Made by a program: the position numbers and the translations under genes. Below are positions 29,763 to 40,106 of a DNA stretch of 64,000 bases, piece after piece (within the stretch, counting starts at the first letter, position 1; each line of letters begins with the position of its first letter). Origin of the DNA: Escherichia phage vB_EcoM_JB75; sequence record MH355584.1. One strand, given 5' to 3'. The notes under the pieces are model-generated. The model was not told the DNA's origin. It saw only the letters and a program-made list of their open reading frames with translations, and ran no database searches.

Positions 29763-30447
<685 letters not shown>

Positions 30448-30456
30448 TTTCACAAA

Positions 30457-30498
30457 GTTGTTTACATACTGATGAGGTAGTGATACTATTACCTCATC
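30457..30498 (+). promoter_or_regulatory. T4-type early promoter with dyad-embedded -10
   Basis: TTTCACAAAGTTGTTTACAT with -35-like GTTTAC, then GATGAGGTA-gtgatactat-TACCTCATC (perfect 9-bp inverted repeat around the -10). Confidence 0.6.
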
Positions 30499-30520
30499 AA
30501 AATTAATTAGGAAAATAAAA

Positions 30521-30778
30521 ATGAAAACTTTCAAAGAGTTTGCTACAAAAACTACTATCACTGAATCTTCCCATGGTATGGAAGTAAAGCTTGGAATGGC
30601 TTTAGCTGAAGCTGAGCGTCTTTTCTCTCGTATTAAAGAACTTGCTGCTGCGGTCGATCCTTCATCTTTTAAAGGAGACCAAACTAAAGTTAAAGCACTT
30701 TTAGCATTATGCTCCGATGCAGGAGAAATTGCTAAAAATGGTTCTAAGATGAAGAAACGATTAGAAGATTTAAAATAA
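30521..30778 (+). CDS. internal-protein-like small protein with capsid-targeting-like N-terminus
   Basis: 85 aa; N-terminus MKTFKEFATKTTITE resembles the T-even IP capsid targeting sequence with a gp21-type ITE cleavage site; own early promoter. Confidence 0.6.
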   Translation: MKTFKEFATKTTITESSHGMEVKLGMALAEAERLFSRIKELAAAVDPSSFKGDQTKVKALLALCSDAGEIAKNGSKMKKRLEDLK

Positions 30779-30787
30779 TTTCACAAA

Positions 30788-30828
30788 GTTGTTTACATAG
30801 GGTTTTAGTTGTGATACTATTACCCTAT
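30788..30828 (+). promoter_or_regulatory. T4-type early promoter with dyad-embedded -10
   Basis: Same TTTCACAAAGTTGTTTACAT block; ATAGGGT ... gtgatactatt ACCCTAT. Confidence 0.6.
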
Positions 30829-30854
30829 CAAAACAAAACCAAATGGAAATCAAA

Positions 30855-31088
30855 ATGAAAACTTACCAAGAATTTATTGCTGAAACTGCTGATGTAAAAG
30901 TTGAGTTTATTTACTCTGGCAAGAAAGATAAAATGGGTGAAATGCCTCATGGAGTTCTTCGTGATGCATTAGATAATTTCGGTCAACTCGCCGCAGAAGA
31001 TTACGGTGATAAAATTGTTGTTACTGGTCCTGCTGCAGTTATTGAAAAATGGGCAGCAGAAAATAAATCAATTTTTCGTAAAAAATAA
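30855..31088 (+). CDS. internal protein (CTS MKTYQEFIAE)
   Basis: Track ORF from 30843; the ATG at 30855 gives MKTYQEFIAE, the canonical T4 IP capsid targeting sequence; own promoter and SD. Confidence 0.7.
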   Translation: MKTYQEFIAETADVKVEFIYSGKKDKMGEMPHGVLRDALDNFGQLAAEDYGDKIVVTGPAAVIEKWAAENKSIFRKK

Positions 31089-31128
31089 GTTTACTTTTAG
31101 ATAGGGTAGTGATACTATTACCCTATCT
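31086..31128 (+). promoter_or_regulatory. T4-type early promoter with dyad-embedded -10
   Basis: GTTTAC then AGATAGGGTA-gtgatactat-TACCCTATCT (perfect 10-bp inverted repeat). Confidence 0.6.
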
Positions 31129-31146
31129 ACTACTGAGGAGAATAAA

Positions 31147-31332
31147 ATGAAACGTTGTGAATTAATTCGAAATGTTGCTATTGCAATTTCTGCTTCCGCT
31201 TTCAGTTTTTCAATGTTTGTTGGATTTATATGCGGATTATTGACTACGGCAGAAAATGTTTTTTCACTTGTAGTAGCATTTTTAATTGGTTTAATTGCTA
31301 TTGTTATGGATAAAATTTCTAAAGGTGAATAA
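31147..31332 (+). CDS. small hydrophobic (membrane) protein
   Basis: 61 aa, two hydrophobic stretches; SD GAGGAG upstream. Confidence 0.5.
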   Translation: MKRCELIRNVAIAISASAFSFSMFVGFICGLLTTAENVFSLVVAFLIGLIAIVMDKISKGE

Positions 31333-31730
31333 TGAACGTTGAATATTATGTATATGCGGATTACGAAAATAATCCGTCTAAAGATGAAGATAATCGTTTA
31401 GGTGTAGATGCTTTCGATTCCCCTGCGGCGGCATGGCAATGGGTTGAAAGAACCGATATTCCTTACCGTTATATTGAAGTGGTTGACCACGCAGGAAACA
31501 AGTATCCTAAGGAAGCATATGTTGCTTCCGGGAAGGTAAATTTCCTTTTGTTTGCAGGTGATAATTATTATCCCCGTGGTGGGTATACCGATTTAATTGC
31601 TAAAGCATTCTCTGAAGATGAACTCCGTGACATTATCAAAGAAAATGAAAACAAACCGATGGATTCTAATCGCTTTGATTGGTGGCAAATCGTAAATGCT
31701 AATACTCACACTATTGTTGATGAAGGCTGA
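31332..31730 (+). CDS. hypothetical protein
   Basis: 132 aa ORF, ATGA overlap with upstream gene. Confidence 0.5.
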   Translation: MNVEYYVYADYENNPSKDEDNRLGVDAFDSPAAAWQWVERTDIPYRYIEVVDHAGNKYPKEAYVASGKVNFLLFAGDNYYPRGGYTDLIAKAFSEDELRDIIKENENKPMDSNRFDWWQIVNANTHTIVDEG

Positions 31731-31732
31731 TA

Positions 31733-32020
31733 ATGATTCTTTATGCGAAAGTATCATCCATTGAAAATGGATATAAATATGATCAAGACGCGGCTAAAGC
31801 TTTGATTGATGATTATGGCATTTTAACCTGTTTTGAAGTTGAAAAGGTTTACATTGACCGTTCATCTTCTCAAGTTAAATTAGTGAAGGAAGACCGCAAA
31901 TTTAATACAGTAAATTTTGATTTCTTTATTGAAACAGAAAAAGGTCCTCTTGAATATGATATTTTCAAGAATCCTTTGGGTCTTGAATGTATCGTAAATA
32001 CGTATTATCATAAATGGTAA
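31733..32020 (+). CDS. hypothetical protein
   Basis: 95 aa ORF in operon context. Confidence 0.5.
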   Translation: MILYAKVSSIENGYKYDQDAAKALIDDYGILTCFEVEKVYIDRSSSQVKLVKEDRKFNTVNFDFFIETEKGPLEYDIFKNPLGLECIVNTYYHKW

Positions 32021-32117
32021 ATATGCTTTAAGAATTATTTGTTATTATTAACTCATACCGCACTGATTAATACCCTCTATCATTAGGGGTTCTTGTTAGA
32101 GAGCCTTTGTTAATAAT

Positions 32118-32190
32118 TGGGAATTAGCCAAGTTGGTAAGGCATAGCACTTTGACTGCTAGATGCAAAGGTTCGAGTCCTTTATTCCCAG
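32118..32190 (+). tRNA. tRNA-Gln (anticodon UUG)
   Basis: Cloverleaf by eye: acceptor TGGGAAT/ATTCCCA, anticodon arm TAGCA-CTTTGAC-TGCTA, T-loop GGTTCGAGTCC. Confidence 0.8.
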
Positions 32191-32191
32191 C

Positions 32192-32278
32192 GCGAGAATG
32201 GTCAAATTGGTAAAGGCACAGCACTTAAAATGCTGCGGAATGATTTCCTTGTGGGTTCGAGTCCCACTTCTCGCACCA
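32192..32278 (+). tRNA. tRNA-Leu (anticodon UAA)
   Basis: Acceptor GCGAGAA/TTCTCGC, anticodon loop CTTAAAA, long variable arm, encoded CCA. Confidence 0.8.
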
Positions 32279-32283
32279 AATTT

Positions 32284-32357
<74 letters not shown>

Positions 32358-32367
32358 ATTTAATTTA

Positions 32368-32441
32368 CTCCGTGTAGCTCAGTTTGGTAGAGCGTCTGCT
32401 TTGGGAGCAGAATGTCGTAGGTTCAAATCCTGCCACGGAGA
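32368..32441 (+). tRNA. tRNA-Pro (anticodon UGG)
   Basis: Acceptor CTCCGTG/CACGGAG, anticodon arm TCTGC-TTTGGGA-GCAGA, T-loop GGTTCAAATCC. Confidence 0.8.
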
Positions 32442-32443
32442 CT

Positions 32444-32533
32444 GGAGGCGTGGCAGAGTGGTTTAATGCACCGGTCTTGAAAACCGGCAGTCGCTCCGGC
32501 GACTCATAGGTTCAAATCCTATCGCCTCCGCCA
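32444..32533 (+). tRNA. tRNA-Ser (anticodon UGA)
   Basis: Acceptor GGAGGCG/CGCCTCC, anticodon loop CTTGAAA, long variable arm, encoded CCA. Confidence 0.8.
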
Positions 32534-32538
32534 GTTTT

Positions 32539-32614
32539 GCTGATTTAGCTCAGTAGGTAGAGCACCTCACTTGTAATGAGGACGTCGGCGGTTCGATTCC
32601 GTCAATCAGCACCA
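32539..32614 (+). tRNA. tRNA-Thr (anticodon UGU)
   Basis: Acceptor GCTGATT/AATCAGC, anticodon arm CCTCA-CTTGTAA-TGAGG, encoded CCA. Confidence 0.8.
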
Positions 32615-32615
32615 A

Positions 32616-32690
32616 GGCCCTGTAGCTGGAAGGTTCAAGCAAGCGACTCATAATCGCCAGATGGTGGTTCAATTCCACCCAGGGCCACCA
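32616..32690 (+). tRNA. tRNA-Ile/Met (anticodon CAU; T4-type tRNA-Ile reads AUA after modification)
   Basis: Acceptor GGCCCTG/CAGGGCC, anticodon loop CTCATAA, T-loop GGTTCAATTCC, encoded CCA. Confidence 0.7.
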
Positions 32691-32703
32691 AATTAAGAAT
32701 TAA

Positions 32704-32790
32704 GGGGAGTTATCCCGTAGAGGTAGCGGTGTGGACTGTAAATCCATTGTCATTGCGACTCGGGTGGTTCGACTCCATCACTCCCCACCA
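32704..32790 (+). tRNA. tRNA-Tyr-like (anticodon GUA), long-variable-arm type
   Basis: Acceptor GGGGAGT/ACTCCCC, anticodon arm GTGGA-CTGTAAA-TCCAT, variable arm, T-arm GGTGG-TTCGACT-CCATC, CCA; D-arm is weak so it could be a variant or pseudo-tRNA. Confidence 0.55.
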
Positions 32791-32794
32791 ATTT

Positions 32795-32869
32795 GGATGT
32801 GTAGCTCAGTGGTAGAGCAGTTGACTGTTAATCAATTGGTCCATGGTTCGAATCCATGCATGTCCGCCA
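32795..32869 (+). tRNA. tRNA-Asn (anticodon GUU)
   Basis: Acceptor GGATGTG/CATGTCC (two GU pairs), D-arm GCTC-AGTGGT-AGAGC, anticodon loop CTGTTAA, T-arm CATGG-TTCGAAT-CCATG, CCA. Confidence 0.7.
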
Positions 32870-32873
32870 AATA

Positions 32874-32949
32874 CGAGGCATAGCTCAGAAGGAAGAGCAA
32901 GGACCTTCTAAGTCCTGGGTCGTAGGTTCGATCCCTACTGCCTCGACCA
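32874..32949 (+). tRNA. tRNA-Arg (anticodon UCU)
   Basis: Acceptor CGAGGCA/TGCCTCG, anticodon arm AGGAC-CTTCTAA-GTCCT, T-arm GTAGG-TTCGATC-CCTAC, CCA. Confidence 0.8.
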
Positions 32950-33049
32950 GACAAGAAGCCGGGTCGCTACCGGCAAGTCGTCGGACTGATGTTCCCTGTT
33001 TAAGGACTGGTATTAATAAATCTTTATGTTTTGTTAATGTCCCCTTATA

Positions 33050-33225
33050 TCACAGCAGAAACGGCGCACCGAATTATCGATTCGAGGAAATATCTTTGCC
33101 GTAAGCCGAGTAGCGTTTTTGACGGAACGTTCGGATATGGTCGAGATATGGCCTTTTAAAAATATTGAGTAGCGTCAACTGCTTAATAACCGGGTTCGAA
33201 TCCCGGCGTTTCGTACAAACACTTG
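33050..33225 (+). ncRNA. candidate small stable RNA with tRNA-like T-arm (possible counterpart of T4 species 1/2 RNAs)
   Basis: Non-coding stretch after tRNA-Arg containing CCGGG-TTCGAAT-CCCGG with flanking AGAAACG/CGTTTCG complementarity about 150 nt apart; ends at a terminator. Confidence 0.35.
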
Positions 33226-33265
33226 CCTTAGCAGGTGGAACCCCGACAAGGTTGCCGCAAGGCTT

Positions 33266-33293
33266 AGCCCCGACCGAAAGGTTGGGGCTTTTT
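33266..33293 (+). terminator. rho-independent terminator (copy 1 of a duplicated element)
   Basis: AGCCCCGACC-GAAA-GGTTGGGGCT followed by TTTTT. Confidence 0.7.
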
Positions 33294-33339
33294 AGTATAA
33301 ATAAGTATATTAAAACCCCGAATTAAAACAGGAAATAAG

Positions 33340-33813
33340 ATGAAATCATATGCTCAATTTTTAAATGAAGCGGTGTTAAATGAAGCATCTAGCACCGAAA
33401 TTCAAGCTGTCGCAAAAGCAGCCATTGCAGCGGGTAAATATTCCTATAAAGATGCTTCTGACGAATCACGATTCCAATTTGCTCGCGACATGAAAGCAGA
33501 AGGATTTACGGGAAATGCAGTTAGTATGGCCTGGAAAAGTCTAGTTGCTACTGGCGCTGCTTTTGCAAAGGCTTCGGGTAAACCTGCTCCTAAAGCAGAT
33601 CCTAAAGCGGCACAAGAAAAAAATATCGTTAAAGGAATTATCGCTAAATATGAAGCTATCCTTAAAGAGCTTTTAGTAATCAAAACCGAAGGCCAAAAGT
33701 TAGCCCGTGCTTATAGTTTCAAAGATAATCCACATGTTCACTCTCTTGAGTATGTTGAAGACATCCAAAAAATTATTAAAGACCGCATTTGGTCTGCTAA
33801 ACAAATCAAATGA
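33340..33813 (+). CDS. internal-protein-like protein (CTS-like MKSYAQFLNEA)
   Basis: 157 aa, Ala/Lys-rich; CTS-like N-terminus with LNE cleavage motif; flanked by identical terminators. Confidence 0.6.
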   Translation: MKSYAQFLNEAVLNEASSTEIQAVAKAAIAAGKYSYKDASDESRFQFARDMKAEGFTGNAVSMAWKSLVATGAAFAKASGKPAPKADPKAAQEKNIVKGIIAKYEAILKELLVIKTEGQKLARAYSFKDNPHVHSLEYVEDIQKIIKDRIWSAKQIK

Positions 33814-33820
33814 CATTCTT

Positions 33821-33848
33821 AGCCCCGACCGAAAGGTTGGGGCTTTTT
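33821..33848 (+). terminator. rho-independent terminator (copy 2, identical)
   Basis: Same hairpin and T-run immediately after the 33340-33813 gene. Confidence 0.7.
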
Positions 33849-33938
33849 AGTTTGAATCACATAGAGAATGCTGCTACGGATAGTAACAAAGTAATAAATA
33901 ATTAATAACCAACCGATAAATTATTTCAAGGATTTTAA

Positions 33939-34502
33939 ATGAAAACCTATGCCGAATTTTTAACCGAAGCAGCAAAATTACCATCTGAAGCAGATCTTAC
34001 TAAAGTATTCTTCCAATTGGACCCAAAAGACCGCGGCGATTTTCTTAAGTGGAAAGCTAAAGCTATTGAAATGTACAACATCGATAATAGTTCTTTTACA
34101 ATGAGTCAAGAAAATAAATTCAATAAAGCATTTTTCAAAATTTCTAAGAAATTGGCATCTGGCGCTCAGGTTCCTAAATCTGTGTTAGCTACTCCTGAAC
34201 GCGCACCTGTTAAAATTTCTAAGAATATGTTCGACACTAAAAAATACGTTAATGCTTTGAATAAAGCTCTTGATGCATTGGATGATGCAAAGAAGGCAGC
34301 CCGCGATCTTCAAGACGTGTACACCGATTTTGACCGCAAAACTAAAGGTTCTATTTCAAATAGCGAACGCAATAGTGTAAGTGTTTATTCTGATAGCCTT
34401 GATGTTCTTGGCGATGCGTATACTGAAATTAAAAATCGTATTAACACTGCATCTAAGCTAAAAGCTGCTGCAGAAGCTATAATAACTAAACTAGGTAAAT
34501 AA
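33939..34502 (+). CDS. internal-protein-like protein (CTS-like MKTYAEFLTEA)
   Basis: 187 aa; CTS-like N-terminus with LTE cleavage motif; terminator follows. Confidence 0.6.
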   Translation: MKTYAEFLTEAAKLPSEADLTKVFFQLDPKDRGDFLKWKAKAIEMYNIDNSSFTMSQENKFNKAFFKISKKLASGAQVPKSVLATPERAPVKISKNMFDTKKYVNALNKALDALDDAKKAARDLQDVYTDFDRKTKGSISNSERNSVSVYSDSLDVLGDAYTEIKNRINTASKLKAAAEAIITKLGK

Positions 34503-34510
34503 TTTTAAAT

Positions 34511-34536
34511 CCCTATCTAAATGATAGGGCTTTTTG
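34511..34536 (+). terminator. rho-independent terminator
   Basis: CCCTATC-TAAAT-GATAGGG followed by CTTTTT. Confidence 0.6.
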
Positions 34537-34663
34537 GTATCTAGGCCTTTCTGGACCTCTCTAGGCATCATTTAGTTTATACCCTTTATAATATATTATC
34601 CTATCCTTTAATTGCCCATCCCTGCCCTAGAATTCCCTAAAAATTTTTTCACAAAACTGTTTA

Positions 34664-34692
34664 CATCTCTGTTCTTCCATGGTACTATACAA
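34664..34692 (+). promoter_or_regulatory. T4-type early promoter
   Basis: TTTTTTCACAAAACTGTTTACAT ... TGGTACTATACAACTATC. Confidence 0.55.
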
Positions 34693-34731
34693 CTATCAAC
34701 TACTGATACAGAAAACAACTTGGAGAATGAA

Positions 34732-34995
34732 ATGGATAATTACGGCGAACTGTTCAACTTCTTTATGAAATGCGTTTCAGAAGATTTCGGTCGTACAGTG
34801 AATGATATTAAAGTTATCGGTCCTGAACATCCGATGTTTGAAACTTACGCAGTAATGGGTAATGAAGACGGTCAGTGGTATACTGTAAAGGTTGTGATTA
34901 ACATGTTCACTGCTGAAAGTTATGTTAAACTGTCTTCTAAAGTTTACCATGATAACGACGAAATCGCTGAAGAATATTTCAATAATATGAAATAA
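34732..34995 (+). CDS. hypothetical protein
   Basis: Track ORF 34612-34995 runs through the promoter; ATG at 34732 behind GGAGAA gives 87 aa. Confidence 0.5.
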   Translation: MDNYGELFNFFMKCVSEDFGRTVNDIKVIGPEHPMFETYAVMGNEDGQWYTVKVVINMFTAESYVKLSSKVYHDNDEIAEEYFNNMK

Positions 34996-35027
34996 GTTTA
35001 CATAGGTTCATGATTGAGATATTATGA
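34994..35027 (+). promoter_or_regulatory. T4-type early promoter
   Basis: AAGTTTACATAGG ... GAGATATTATGA. Confidence 0.5.
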
Positions 35028-35051
35028 GCCTATACAAATGAGGAAAACATT

Positions 35052-35387
35052 ATGAAACGTAACTTTAGTAAAGCTTTTTGTAATAGAAATAATTATCCTG
35101 AAGAGCTTTTTGAATCTAAGGACTTTAAAGAGTTTAACGAACGTTCTCAAAACATGCCTGTACAATGGGTGTTAGATTATGCCAAACGTATCTTTGAAGG
35201 CGTGCGGGATATTTGTCCTGATGATGAAGCTCCTTATTTTAAAAAGGCTTGGGAACTCGCCAACCAAGCATATATCAATGCTTTAGAATCTTCTAAAGGT
35301 ACTGACGATGATTTTATTTTATTGGCTATCAATGATGCCGTTATCGAGGCCATTGACGTCTTTATCGATGAGCTAGACGAAGAATAA
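35052..35387 (+). CDS. hypothetical acidic protein
   Basis: 111 aa; early promoter and SD upstream. Confidence 0.5.
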   Translation: MKRNFSKAFCNRNNYPEELFESKDFKEFNERSQNMPVQWVLDYAKRIFEGVRDICPDDEAPYFKKAWELANQAYINALESSKGTDDDFILLAINDAVIEAIDVFIDELDEE

Positions 35388-35418
35388 GTTTACAATCTAT
35401 TAAAACGTGATATTATCT
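35387..35418 (+). promoter_or_regulatory. T4-type early promoter
   Basis: AAGTTTACAATC ... GTGATATTATCT. Confidence 0.5.
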
Positions 35419-35443
35419 AATTATACCAACCTAAGGAAATACT

Positions 35444-36037
35444 ATGAACACACTGAAGAAAATTGTTGAGTTTATTCGCACTAAACTTGGTTCTGCTATG
35501 GCTAAAAATCTATCTGTTGAAGAACAGTATACTGCTGCAGCAGCAAAACTGCTTGATAAAATTAAAGACCTAAAAACTGCTTCTGTTAAATCTATTAATG
35601 AAGAAAAACGTATTCGTGAACTTATTGTTGAAAAGAATAAGCAGGCCGAATCAAAAGAGCGTGAAATTCGCAAGCTTCTTTCTGAAGGTCAAGATGTAAC
35701 AATGCATGCTAAACTCGGTTTACTATATCGTCGAACAGCTGAGCAGTTGACTACTAAGGCTGACGGTTATGCTGAAATGCGAATTGAAATCGCCAAGAAA
35801 GTAGTTGAGTTAGATGATGCTCGTCAAGAACTTGCAGTTAAATTGGAATATATCCGTGAAACTCGTGCGGCAAATGCCCTTGGAATTAGTACTGCCGATG
35901 ATGTAGTTGAAATTGCAGCACTGACTAAGGTTGATATTGAAGATACCCTTGCTCGAGTTGAAACCTTTAATGGTAATATTTCTGGGGTTGAAACTACCTC
36001 TGCCGATGTTCAGGAATACATTAATTCTCTGAAATAA
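35444..36037 (+). CDS. predicted helical coiled-coil protein
   Basis: 197 aa with heptad-like Glu/Lys/Leu periodicity; early promoter upstream. Confidence 0.5.
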
Positions 36038-36078
36038 TGATAAGGGGTTTCGGCCCCTTATACTTGGAGTAAATAGGA

Positions 36079-36693
36079 ATGAAAATGAAAATGCAAAGTG
36101 ATTTCAATTCAATGTTTGAAGAGTTCCAAAGACAGGTTGATGTTCCAGACCAATTACTAAATGCTCTTAAACGCATGGCAGAAGGACGTAATTACTATTG
36201 GGGGTCTTCATATGAAACTGATGAAAGCCTTTCCGGAAGATTTTCTAGAGGTAAAAAGTCTTTAATACGTCCTGGAATACTCATTAACAGTATTGAATCA
36301 ATTCATTCATTGACATGCGATTTTGATGTTGAATTTACTGATTTCATTTCTCCTGAATGGACGGTATGTTATTTAAACGACGATTTTGATTATCTCGGTG
36401 TTTATAGTTTAAGTGACGCATGGTTTAAACGTAATTTACAAAAGTCAAATTTATTCTATATTGATACTACAGTAAAATTTCAGGGAAAGAAATATTTCTT
36501 TACTCTTATAGTTGATTCTGAAACGAAGCATGAAAATAAACGTATTCTTAGTAAAAGAAATATCTTGAATATTGTTGATGATCTTTTTGATAAATTAGTG
36601 GAAAATCCTAATTTTGAAAGTGATTTATTACTAGAAAAATTTGTTAAGGAATGTAGAGAATATGTCAAAACCATCACTATACCTTCCAAGTAA
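36079..36693 (+). CDS. hypothetical protein
   Basis: 204 aa; C-terminus EKFVKECREYVK resembles the C-termini of the next three genes. Confidence 0.5.
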   Translation: MKMKMQSDFNSMFEEFQRQVDVPDQLLNALKRMAEGRNYYWGSSYETDESLSGRFSRGKKSLIRPGILINSIESIHSLTCDFDVEFTDFISPEWTVCYLNDDFDYLGVYSLSDAWFKRNLQKSNLFYIDTTVKFQGKKYFFTLIVDSETKHENKRILSKRNILNIVDDLFDKLVENPNFESDLLLEKFVKECREYVKTITIPSK

Positions 36694-37054
36694 ACCGTTG
36701 AAGTATGAATTAAAGCGTCAGATAATTTCTACTGATGTGTTAATAGGTCCTGTTATACTCATATCATTTGTAATTCTATTGATTATTGGAGGTGTTTTAG
36801 ATGTTATGACTGATATTGATTCTGGCGAAATACTTGTGTTAATGCTAATTCTTCCATTAATAGTTCCACTTTTATTAGTACCCGTAAATTGGGTAGGATA
36901 CTGGTATCAAGGAAGGCATTATCGTAAACGCGTACGTGATTGGAAAGCACAGTGTAAAAAGATTAAAAAGGAACATCAGCTTAAACTTGCTGCGCATGAA
37001 TTTGATGAAATTATGAAATTTGTTAAGGAATCACGATGCAAAAGCCAAAACTAA
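36662..37054 (+). CDS. small membrane protein, paralogue 1
   Basis: Track ORF from 36641; ATG at 36662; two predicted TM helices; ends EIMKFVKESRCK. Confidence 0.5.
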   Translation: MSKPSLYLPSKPLKYELKRQIISTDVLIGPVILISFVILLIIGGVLDVMTDIDSGEILVLMLILPLIVPLLLVPVNWVGYWYQGRHYRKRVRDWKAQCKKIKKEHQLKLAAHEFDEIMKFVKESRCKSQN

Positions 37055-37398
37055 ATAAAGTCAAATATTCGTTTCCAGAGGCACTATTAATTCTTGCCGT
37101 ATCAGCATTTGCAGCTCTTGCAGGTAGTCTTATTGGATTGTTAATTGATTGTTTTATTTTAAACATCGACGGCACAGTAATTATAACAGAGGTTTGGAGT
37201 GAACTTCGTTTTACTATAGCGATTTCATTATTTTCATTCTTTGGTACCATGTTATATTTTCATTATGATAATTTTAAAATAAATTGGCAAAGAAAAAAGG
37301 ATTACAAAATACAATTAAAAGAATATAATAGCTACATGTCTTATATTGAAAATGAGTCAATGAAAGAGTTTGTGAGTGATTGTAGGAAAATTAAATGA
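37036..37398 (+). CDS. small membrane protein, paralogue 2
   Basis: 120 aa, two hydrophobic helices; ends EFVSDCRKIK. Confidence 0.5.
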   Translation: MQKPKLNKVKYSFPEALLILAVSAFAALAGSLIGLLIDCFILNIDGTVIITEVWSELRFTIAISLFSFFGTMLYFHYDNFKINWQRKKDYKIQLKEYNSYMSYIENESMKEFVSDCRKIK

Positions 37399-37513
37399 TT
37401 TTAAAAACTCGCTGGTATGATTTAGATGATGGGGATGATGGCATTTCAGTTGATAGAGTTGACTGGAATGGTTGTTCCGAAGATATGAAAATTTGTTGAT
37501 TAGGGAGTTTAGA

Positions 37514-37863
37514 ATGGGATATCAAGCAGCTAAGCCATTTACTGTAACAGATGATAAGTTCGTATGTATTCAAAACGGTCGCGCTAAGTTAACGAATGCT
37601 GATTGGTTCACAGATAAGAAGGTTCTTCTGTGGTATATCATTAGTCTTCCTATATCATCGTTCGTATTTTACTTTTTTATAAAAAATCCAATGGACAGAA
37701 TAGGAGATTGGGTTCTTTTAACTATACTTGTTAATATTTTTACAGCAGCAGTATTATCAGGAATATGGCGTATGTTCATTGAAATGCCATGGCGTTTACG
37801 CAGACAACAAAAGATTTTTGATGAAAAGAAATATACTCAAAATTTAAATAACTTTATCACTGA

Positions 37864-37882
<19 letters not shown>
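37514..37882 (+). CDS. small membrane protein, paralogue 3
   Basis: Track ORF from 37472; ATG at 37514 behind GGGAG; hydrophobic helices; ends NFITECRKLK. Confidence 0.5.
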
Positions 37883-38851
<969 letters not shown>

Positions 38852-38886
38852 AGTTGTTTACTTTCTCCTAGAATTGTGATAGTATA
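38852..38886 (+). promoter_or_regulatory. T4-type early promoter
   Basis: AGTTGTTTACTTT ... TGTGATAGTATATT. Confidence 0.5.
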
Positions 38887-38939
38887 TTCACAGTTGCTTG
38901 AAGAGACAAATTACTAATTAAAATATTTAAAGGAAACAT

Positions 38940-39413
38940 ATGAAAACATATCAAGAATTTATCACTGAAGCAGCTATTAATTCTCAAATTATTGCTGAAT
39001 CTTTTACTGATCTTTTGAAATTTAAAAAAGGTCAAAAAATTACTGCTGTATTGGATGATGGTACAGAAGTTGAGATGGATGTACAGGGATATAATTATGC
39101 AGTAGATGGAAAACTGTATAATAAATCTCATGCTAAATTTGATTCATTTGACGACTTTGTTAATACAGTTGAAGATGAAAAAACTCGTCGATCCATTGCA
39201 ACTGGTGATGCTAAGGTTCTTATGGCACATGGTCATGAACGCATTCGCGCTAAACAGAATAAAATGGGTGAAGATAATTTTGCATTAGTTGGTTATCAAT
39301 CTGGTAAACAAACTTATGGCTATCAACGTACTGCTACAATGTATAATAAAAATGGTAAAATTGCCTTTGTAAATAGTAAAGGTTCTATTCAGTACGTTAA
39401 ATCGTTCAAATAA
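38940..39413 (+). CDS. internal protein (CTS MKTYQEFITEA), in the ipIII position
   Basis: 157 aa; canonical CTS with ITE cleavage site; early promoter upstream. Confidence 0.7.
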   Translation: MKTYQEFITEAAINSQIIAESFTDLLKFKKGQKITAVLDDGTEVEMDVQGYNYAVDGKLYNKSHAKFDSFDDFVNTVEDEKTRRSIATGDAKVLMAHGHERIRAKQNKMGEDNFALVGYQSGKQTYGYQRTATMYNKNGKIAFVNSKGSIQYVKSFK

Positions 39414-39566
39414 GCAAATAAGAAATATGGGAACAAACTGGACCTCATGATTCTATGAGGGATTCCCGCCAACCTGTAATAAGGTCGAGCCTGAGTGCGG
39501 TAATGGGTAAATACAGAAATGGACAATTCATGCGCCATGGAATGGCCCAAATTTAGAGAGAATAAA

Positions 39567-40106
39567 ATGAGAACATTTTTAACTGGTCCTTATCTATCCC
39601 TGATGAATGCTTTTACACACCATTCTGATGCTAGAGTAGAAGAAATTTGTAAAAACGATTATATCCCACCATTTGAAGACTTACTTAAACAGTATTGCAC
39701 ACTTCGACTAGATGGTGGACGTCAATCCGGTAAATCAATTGCTGTGACTAACTTCGCTGCTAATTGGTTGTATGATGGCGGAACAGTTATTGTTCTTTCT
39801 AATACTTCAGCTTACGCTAAAATTTCTGCAAATAACATTAAAAAGGAATTTTCGCGTTATTCTAATGATGATATACGTTTTCGTTTATTTACTGATTCTG
39901 TGCGCAGTTTTATTGGTAATAAAGGAAGCAAGTTCAGAGGTTTATCGCTTTCACGAATTTTGTATATAATTGATGAGCCTGTTAAATCTCCTGATATGGA
40001 TAAAATTTACGATATTCATATTGAAACTGTGCAACACTGCTGCAATAGTAAATGTTGCATTGGTGGTATTACTCGTCCACAGTTTTTCGTAATCGGAATG
40101 CAATGA
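39567..40106 (+). CDS. small P-loop NTPase with C-terminal Cys cluster
   Basis: Walker A GGRQSGKS, Walker B ILYIIDEP, C-terminal HCCNSKCC; start taken at ATG 39567 behind GAGAG. Confidence 0.55.
   Translation: MRTFLTGPYLSLMNAFTHHSDARVEEICKNDYIPPFEDLLKQYCTLRLDGGRQSGKSIAVTNFAANWLYDGGTVIVLSNTSAYAKISANNIKKEFSRYSNDDIRFRLFTDSVRSFIGNKGSKFRGLSLSRILYIIDEPVKSPDMDKIYDIHIETVQHCCNSKCCIGGITRPQFFVIGMQ

Follow-up and report, generated by a model that had tools for sequence, protein, structure and literature searches.

Capsid-targeted internal-protein genes of Escherichia phage vB_EcoM_JB75: three known members and two probable ones at a third site

A stretch of 64,000 nucleotides (nt) from Escherichia phage vB_EcoM_JB75 (MH355584.1), referred to in its whole length as the window, is a segment of a Tequatrovirus genome whose plus strand corresponds to the minus strand of T4, and it carries five genes whose products begin with a capsid targeting sequence (CTS). 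The five genes are regarded here, with a probability of roughly 0.65, as encoding T-even internal proteins (IPs) that are borne on exchangeable cassettes and likely act as injected inhibitors of host defence. Three of them are the already known Ip5, Ip6 and Ip4 genes, and the new element of the present analysis is a pair of unannotated, probable IP genes at a third locus, for which the working labels P3 (start at 33340) and P4 (start at 33939) are used. The phenomenon as such has been known since 1994 and its function was partly solved between 2007 and 2025.

Capsid targeting leaders of the five genes

A first-pass annotation of this DNA had proposed capsid-targeted internal-protein-like genes, starting with CTS variants that end in a gp21-type (L/I)xE motif, at 30521, 30855, 33340 and 33939, with a fifth at 38940, and all five were recovered as open reading frames (ORFs) on the plus strand (Table 1). 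In a six-frame translation of the window the pattern MK[ST][YF]..F has five matches, all at the starts of these five genes, whereas 200 shuffles gave 0.095 on average. A looser leader pattern (M, one or two residues, Y/F, two residues, F and a following [LIV]xE, in an ORF of at least 50 aa) returned the same five matches only, against 0.03 in shuffles. Since the CTS pattern occurs five times where about 0.1 is expected, and only at ORF starts, the observation is real and far beyond chance; a chance origin of the leader similarity was rejected on these counts.

Mutational studies of the CTS (Mullaney and Black; reviewed in PMC9026906) assign targeting to residues 4 and 7 and processing by gp21 to residues 8 and 10. 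In all five leaders residue 4 is Y or F and residue 7 is F, and the processing determinants are also kept in every one, the closing motif being IAE, LNE, LTE or ITE at residues 8-10 and, in Ip5, ITE at residues 13-15 as in the leader of T4 IPI. The latter leader, MKTFKEFTSTTTPVSTITE, of 19 residues, whose cleavage yields the known 76-residue IPI*, is of the same type as that of Ip5, MKTFKEFATKTTITE, and the Ip6 leader is identical to that of T4 IPII and IPIII. Three of the genes bear IP names and all five retain the CTS determinants, in agreement with the capsid-targeted character first proposed for them.

A small size is common to the five products and T4 IPI, IPII and IPIII, as are the CTS and the (L/I)xE site. 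The mature forms have isoelectric points (pI) of 9.1-9.5 in four of the five, basic as in T4 IPI-III (9.0-9.7), the remaining one being Ip6; mature P3 and P4 are lysine-rich with net charges of +7 and +9, comparable to IPII and IPIII. Beyond the leader the five differ from IPI*, IPII and IPIII in that the mature bodies show no detectable sequence similarity to them or among themselves (all pairwise BLASTP E > 0.1), which bears out the earlier description of the bodies as divergent. Housekeeping homologues, which would have spoken for ordinary cellular functions, were absent as well: searches of the bodies gave only sub-threshold noise in Pfam except for DUF7412 in Ip4, nothing meaningful in NCBIfam and nothing in a PDB sequence search, and neither housekeeping nor enzymatic homology appeared in these searches or in a fold search with the P3 model (below).

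Two of the leaders carry gp21-type sites in tandem, P3 with LNE at residues 8-10 and again at 13-15 (window positions 33340-33387) and Ip4 with ITE at residues 8-10 and IAE at 18-20 (38940-39002). Given these tandem sites, the mature N-termini of P3 and Ip4 may be ragged or doubly trimmed.

Table 1. Capsid-targeted genes and associated boundary and promoter elements in the window (aa, amino acids; pI of the mature form)
Feature	Positions	Strand	Description
71-nt repeat, copy 1	30432-30502	+	Upstream of ip5; early promoter GTTTACA-17-TACTAT (scan 30461-30489) overlapped by a 13-bp stem-loop; fold -17.4 kcal/mol, z -4.25
ip5	30521-30778	+	85 aa; long IPI-type leader MKTFKEFATKTTITE, predicted cleavage before S; mature 70 aa, pI 9.2
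71-nt repeat, copy 2	30763-30833	+	Between ip5 and ip6; 86% identical to copy 1; early promoter and stem-loop
ip6	30855-31088	+	77 aa; leader MKTYQEFIAE, predicted cleavage before T; mature 67 aa, pI 6.5
71-nt repeat, copy 3	31061-31131	+	63% identity; early promoter and 14-bp stem-loop; closes the ip6 cassette and drives trna.4
Terminator hairpin, copy 1, with late promoter	33263-33303	+	Homologue of the T4 rnaC terminator, then perfect T4 late promoter TATAAATA at 33296-33303, 37 nt before the P3 start codon
P3	33340-33813	+	157 aa; leader MKSYAQFLNE, predicted cleavage before A; mature about 147 aa, pI 9.5; predicted all-helical
Terminator hairpin, copy 2	33818-33857	+	Between P3 and P4; 95% identical to 33263-33302
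P4	33939-34502	+	187 aa; leader MKTYAEFLTE, predicted cleavage before A; mature 177 aa, pI 9.5
Terminator hairpin, copy 3	34505-34544	+	Downstream of P4; 65% identity
Early-promoter-like element	38850-38885	+	GTTTACT...TGTGATAGTAT; upstream of ip4; homologous to T4 ipII/ipIII upstream regions (T4 65805-65687); weak, below the consensus-scan threshold
ip4	38940-39413	+	157 aa; leader MKTYQEFITE, predicted cleavage before A

Ip5, Ip6 and Ip4 at the classical loci

The gene at 30521 corresponds to Ip5 by the name of its UniRef cluster ('Ip5', Q38630_BPT6), by the ip5 annotation of phage JK08 and by a match to phrog_3499 (internal head protein, E 1e-49). The gene at 30855 is ip6 in the annotations of JK08 and VR7 and in its cluster names, with a match to phrog_8111 (internal virion protein, E 5e-52), and that at 38940 falls in clusters named 'IpIV internal head protein' and 'Ip4', matching phrog_3155 (internal virion protein) and, in Pfam, DUF7412 (E 6e-96). 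The ip5 and ip6 genes occupy the classical ipI locus of T4, between 57B and trna.4, and ip4 lies by synteny in the ipII/ipIII locus between e and denV, where, as in T2, it stands in place of ipIII, ipII and denV. The 20 nt upstream of ip4 and of ip5 are exactly shared with T4 ipIII and ipI, respectively. For these three proteins, packaging through the CTS with processing by gp21 is considered highly probable.

The two genes of the ipI locus are bounded by three clear copies of a 71-nt repeat, each with a T4 early promoter (GTTTACA-17-TACTAT) overlapped by a stable stem-loop that has no T-run; the folding energies lie between -17 and -18 kcal/mol, at z scores near -4.5. By name, ip5, ip6 and ip4 belong to the polymorphic IP cassettes of the T-even phages (Ip4-Ip13 and more; Repoila et al. 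1994; Comeau et al. 2007), and according to papers citing Repoila et al. such cassettes have a flanking repeat of about 70 bp that combines an early promoter with an overlapping inverted repeat, as found here at 30432, 30763 and 31061. At ip4 only the weak promoter homologue is present, and no such flank occurs at P3 or P4. The abstract of the original description is said to agree with a flank of this kind. In the PeSL (promoter-stem-loop) cassettes of the T4-type phages, short conserved regulatory repeats similarly bracket non-essential ORFs and mark the boundaries of insertion, deletion and replacement (Arbiol et al. 2010; Comeau et al. 2014); Arbiol et al. regard the repeats of the T-even IPs as analogous to these and not homologous, and the repeat unit of the third locus differs further in being a terminator alone.

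The first reading of the DNA had given each gene its own early promoter and most of them a terminator, in an array around the tRNA cluster. Early promoters are borne out at ip5 and ip6 and, in weak form, at ip4; P3 has instead a perfect late promoter and P4 a late-like element matching at seven of eight positions (AATAAATA). Terminators consisting of a hairpin and a T-run follow P3 and P4 only, whereas the elements beside ip5 and ip6 are promoter-overlapping stem-loops. The cassettes themselves stand, but the array resolves into two separate loci with different boundary elements, together with a further locus near e.

In the ip4 region (38852-39520) denV, ipII and ipIII are all absent, and the order e, ip4, vs.8 is that of T2, RB33 and OE5505, the last being 100% identical here; in many relatives, by contrast, denV comes either immediately after e or after e and ip4. 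Loss of denV would predict a T2-like sensitivity to ultraviolet light. In the ipI locus of phage VR7 (Gaprivervirus), a hypothetical protein of 92 aa (ORF153c, L006:561-839) between ip9 and ip6 starts with MKTYQEFINE, and looks like the product of another unannotated CTS-bearing gene.

P3 and P4 at a third site

P3 and P4 are carried by a 1.2-kb insertion relative to T4 (33299-34510), sited between the rnaC terminator and e.8, where T4 has nothing; by BLAST, collinearity with T4 resumes at 34511 (T4 position 70854). They thus lie outside both recognised IP loci, in which ip5, ip6 and ip4 are found, and the restriction of IPs to two loci is a habit of the known members and not a mechanistic requirement. 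The two cassettes are bounded by three copies of the rnaC-type terminator hairpin, of which T4 has one. Directly after the T-run of the first copy comes TATAAATA (33296-33303), one of only nine plus-strand copies in 64 kb; the same arrangement of terminator and TATAAATA, conserved in Tequatrovirus and Jiaodavirus, is present in fPS-90, G3G7 and Klebsiella phage K5 (Jiaodavirus), and the annotators of fPS-90 label its copy 'predicted late promoter'. The scan gave no early promoter for P3 and no consensus early promoter for P4. As judged from the sequence, the promoter before P3 would fit synthesis during head assembly. The pair therefore differs from the polymorphic T-even IP cassettes in its site, its terminator-hairpin flanks and its late or late-like promoters, and also in that its members are not named IPs among the records listed.

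Both proteins match phrog_2280, a family of unknown function represented in more than 500 sequenced phages of at least three genera confirmed by taxonomy (Tequatrovirus, Mosigvirus and Jiaodavirus). Phage records containing P3 number 511 and those containing P4 number 164, and the two are called hypothetical or uncharacterised in all the records listed and in all named cluster members. The content of the rnaC-e.8 site varies from none (T4, T2, RB10, PST) through P3 alone (AR1, HY01, RB18, fD1) to both (127 records). An exhaustive profile search with hidden Markov models (HMMs) for relatives of P3 and P4 found 16 representatives only, several of them chimeric or truncated, and the idea of a large hidden family was dropped on this result.

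P3 and P4 are about 25% identical and a direct BLASTP aligns only their leaders, so their kinship rests on the shared PHROG profile and the family alignment. The distant relatives (24-50% identity) start with MLKFNEFLAE, MINFSDFLNE, MKSFSSFLNE and MISFNEFVDGNLITE, and M..[YF]..FL.E, with positions 4, 7, 8 and 10, is kept down to 24-30% identity. In the family alignment M1, F7 and K89 are the sole invariant columns and L8 is nearly invariant; with M1 and F7 invariant and L8 almost so, conservation in the P3/P4 family is highest at the leader. P3 and P4 might on another account be ordinary cytoplasmic accessory proteins that are never packaged, with a CTS-like start that is a recombination relic, a chance product or a matter of translation. 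Such an account is consistent with their hypothetical status in the records listed, their position outside the two IP loci, their want of early-promoter repeats and the unspecific nature of the fD1 virion proteome discussed below, but it sits badly with a leader that is the best-conserved part of the protein, with four of four functional positions kept, while the bodies drop to 24% identity. The DNA points the same way: both genes have ribosome-binding regions unlike those of the ip genes, synonymous codon differences set the leaders apart, and the P4 leader is 67% identical to that of ip6 over 36 nt only; because of this low identity and the different ribosome-binding regions, no recent exchange of 5' ends with the ip genes is indicated. 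A shared translation-initiation region, the objection foreseen at the outset, therefore fails to explain the similarity for P3 and P4, where the upstream regions and codons differ and the peptide pattern is kept. Together with a late promoter suited to a head component and the detection of a P3 homologue in virions, these observations render the unpackaged alternative quite improbable.

The predicted model of P3 is all-helical, with a predicted local distance difference test score (pLDDT) of 70, and comprises a small N-terminal domain, a linker rich in Pro, Lys and Ala, and a C-terminal helical hairpin; Foldseek, run with this model on PDB and BFVD, yielded no match apart from its own homologue. 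A fold assignment for P4 was abandoned, the model at pLDDT 51 being too poor for a fold search.

Several copies of the two genes are broken. RB69 has a truncated P4 of 146 aa with an overlapping ORF (ORF149c/148c, L004:1932-2494), copies in OE5505 and G4500 are split in two, and such truncated or frameshifted copies of P3 and P4 (among them proteins P0036, P0058 and P0083) occur in several phages, which suggests frequent decay of dispensable genes. Among metagenome proteins (P0088, P0097, P0098), chimeras join a trna.3-like N-terminus to the C-terminus of P3, or a P4 fragment to NudE; they are either deletion or recombination products of a hyperplastic region or assembly artefacts.

Evidence from virions

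Incorporation into virions, proposed as a check on the first-pass annotation, finds some support in a published analysis of Yersinia phage fD1 (phiD1), whose g140 is 97% identical to P3 and whose g129 is 100% identical to Ip4. Liquid chromatography-tandem mass spectrometry of purified fD1 virions lists both g140 and g129 as particle-associated, whereas the adjacent e.8 homologue and several e-region neighbours (g133-g135, g138 and g139), the e.2-e.4 homologues included, were undetected, with g136 and g137 detected. The dataset is of low specificity, and the detection of the P3 homologue is accordingly taken as supportive only. Packaging with gp21 processing is judged likely for P3 and, a step lower, reasonably probable for P4.

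Probable functions

The T-even IPs are described in reviews as a diverse defence-countering set with the CTS as the sole shared feature. IPI* inhibits the GmrS/GmrD enzyme, of a type IV restriction family (GmrSD) that attacks glucosyl-hydroxymethylcytosine DNA, and IPIII is required on strain ECOR17 and retains its activity when the host cytoplasm supplies it in a CTS-less form. Ip1, Ip2 and Ip3 each block a different GmrSD subtype, without cross-protection (Silas et al. 2025).

By the mechanism proposed here, the N-terminal CTS of 10-15 residues would bind the scaffolding core of the prohead, and cleavage by gp21 after (L/I)xE would free the mature protein, basic in four of the five cases, inside the head, where it would stay with the packaged DNA and presumably be injected with it. 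There, on the model of T4 Ip1, Ip2 and Ip3, the mature protein would inhibit host defence nucleases stoichiometrically during the opening seconds of infection, GmrSD type IV subtypes being the likeliest targets and each body having its own narrow specificity. Cassette exchange would be bounded by the 71-nt early-promoter and stem-loop repeat at ip5 and ip6 and by the terminator hairpins at P3 and P4, with ip4 exchanged in the ipII/ipIII locus, and at least P3 would be driven by a late promoter.

The five genes resemble those of the GmrSD inhibitors Ip1*, Ip2 and Ip3 (Bair 2007; Rifat 2008; Silas 2025) in their presumed delivery, in which the packaged protein enters the host either before the DNA or together with it, and in their genomic contexts, but no homology of the bodies to those inhibitors was detected. 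The earlier suggestion that the five are candidate injected anti-defence effectors matches the working model of the field, in which Ip1-3 counter GmrSD, but meets a negative result for ip4-10. For any one of the five, an injected anti-defence function, with the GmrSD family as the most likely target, is by this analogy given about an even chance.

Several observations weigh against the proposal. No reproducible inhibition was obtained with ip4-10 on the GmrSD panel (Silas et al. 2025), so that for Ip4, Ip5 and Ip6 a role against GmrSD is still conjectural; the names covered by that study, ip4-10, do not include P3 and P4. IP genes are described in the literature as confined to two loci and absent elsewhere, P3 and P4 lack the early-promoter repeats typical of these loci, and mature Ip6, at pI 6.5, is not basic. 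The fD1 proteome is unspecific, with 113-137 of 277 gene products particle-associated, NudE, DenV and dNMP kinase among them. The models are of modest confidence for P3 and poor for P4, and for P4 cleavage, packaging and injection are putative. Finally, members of the P3 family from different genera share a well-conserved N-terminal domain (AGKYSYKD...SRFQF...AWKS), an unusual trait in an effector engaged in an arms race, and this conservation above expectation leaves room for a role in serving the virion.

In such a role the proteins would be packaged but would act in neutralising the charge of DNA, in head assembly or packaging, or in protecting the DNA ends. The basic, lysine-rich character of most mature forms suits this role, as do the conservation of the P3-family N-terminal domain across four genera, the slower head assembly and reduced burst of IPIII mutants (PMC9026906) and the lack of a GmrSD phenotype for ip4-10. 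A core structural role is nevertheless difficult to reconcile with the polymorphism of none, one or two cassettes, T4 and T2 having none, and with the frequency of truncated or frameshifted copies, and all three T4 IPs with known targets are defence inhibitors; a purely virion-serving function is thus held to be unlikely.

Somewhat less unlikely, though still doubtful, is an explanation that overlaps with injected defence inhibition, in which the five are injected effectors with targets other than GmrSD, acting on other defences or in host takeover in the manner of Alt. Alt, a packaged ADP-ribosyltransferase (PMC9026906), is a precedent for a packaged effector that is not antirestrictive, and the negative results of ip4-10 against the tested GmrSD systems and the bodies unrelated in sequence and fold are in keeping with it. 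The IPs with known targets all hit GmrSD, however, the bodies have no enzymatic domain or family match, and the panel sampled only part of a vast family of GmrSD systems. A more specific and tentative suggestion, put forward as a possibility that falls short of an even chance, is that phrog_2280 marks a third internal-protein locus of the Tevenvirinae, expressed late behind the terminator of the tRNA operon, whose products would be injected against a defence outside the GmrSD panel.

Genomic setting

Tequatrovirus LF73P1 is 98.8% identical to the segment 30457-34540, which has matches in 1155 phage records, with at least 80% of the segment covered in 93. As judged by BLAST against T4 and the T4 annotation, the gene order is gene 1, 57A, 57B, two small genes replacing ipI, trna.4, trna.3, trna.2 and ten tRNAs, followed by the rnaD/rnaC region, the 1.2-kb insertion with its two genes, e.8 to e.2, nudE, e, one gene replacing ipIII/ipII/denV, and vs.8.

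The tRNA cluster (32118-32949) comprises ten genes (Gln, Leu, Gly, Pro, Ser, Thr, Met, Tyr, Asn and Arg); compared with the eight tRNAs of T4 it lacks tRNA-Ile and the homing endonuclease segB and has Met, Tyr and Asn in addition. The region 32950-33262 is 89% identical to T4 rnaD/rnaC and has a tRNA-like T-arm repeat, GGTTCGAATCC, at 33193; part of its equivalent is labelled 'tRNA-OTHER' by the annotators of G9062. An Rfam scan of 30000-40000 returned the ten tRNAs only, and no family matching the rnaC/rnaD region. Two further early-promoter elements were observed, one at 34660-34688 upstream of e.8 and the other at 34996-35038, 74% identical to the ip6 promoter and stem-loop repeat, upstream of the ORF at the e.7 position.

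Conclusions

Injected internal proteins are the first-response counter-defence of the phage and decide the host range of T4-like therapy phages. P3 and P4, 'hypothetical' in hundreds of genomes and lying outside the loci at which earlier surveys were aimed, extend the list of anti-defence candidates, and a third IP locus, if true, would contradict the published view of two loci. To judge from these two probable IP genes, terminator repeats can likewise serve the movement of IP cassettes, and late promoters their expression.

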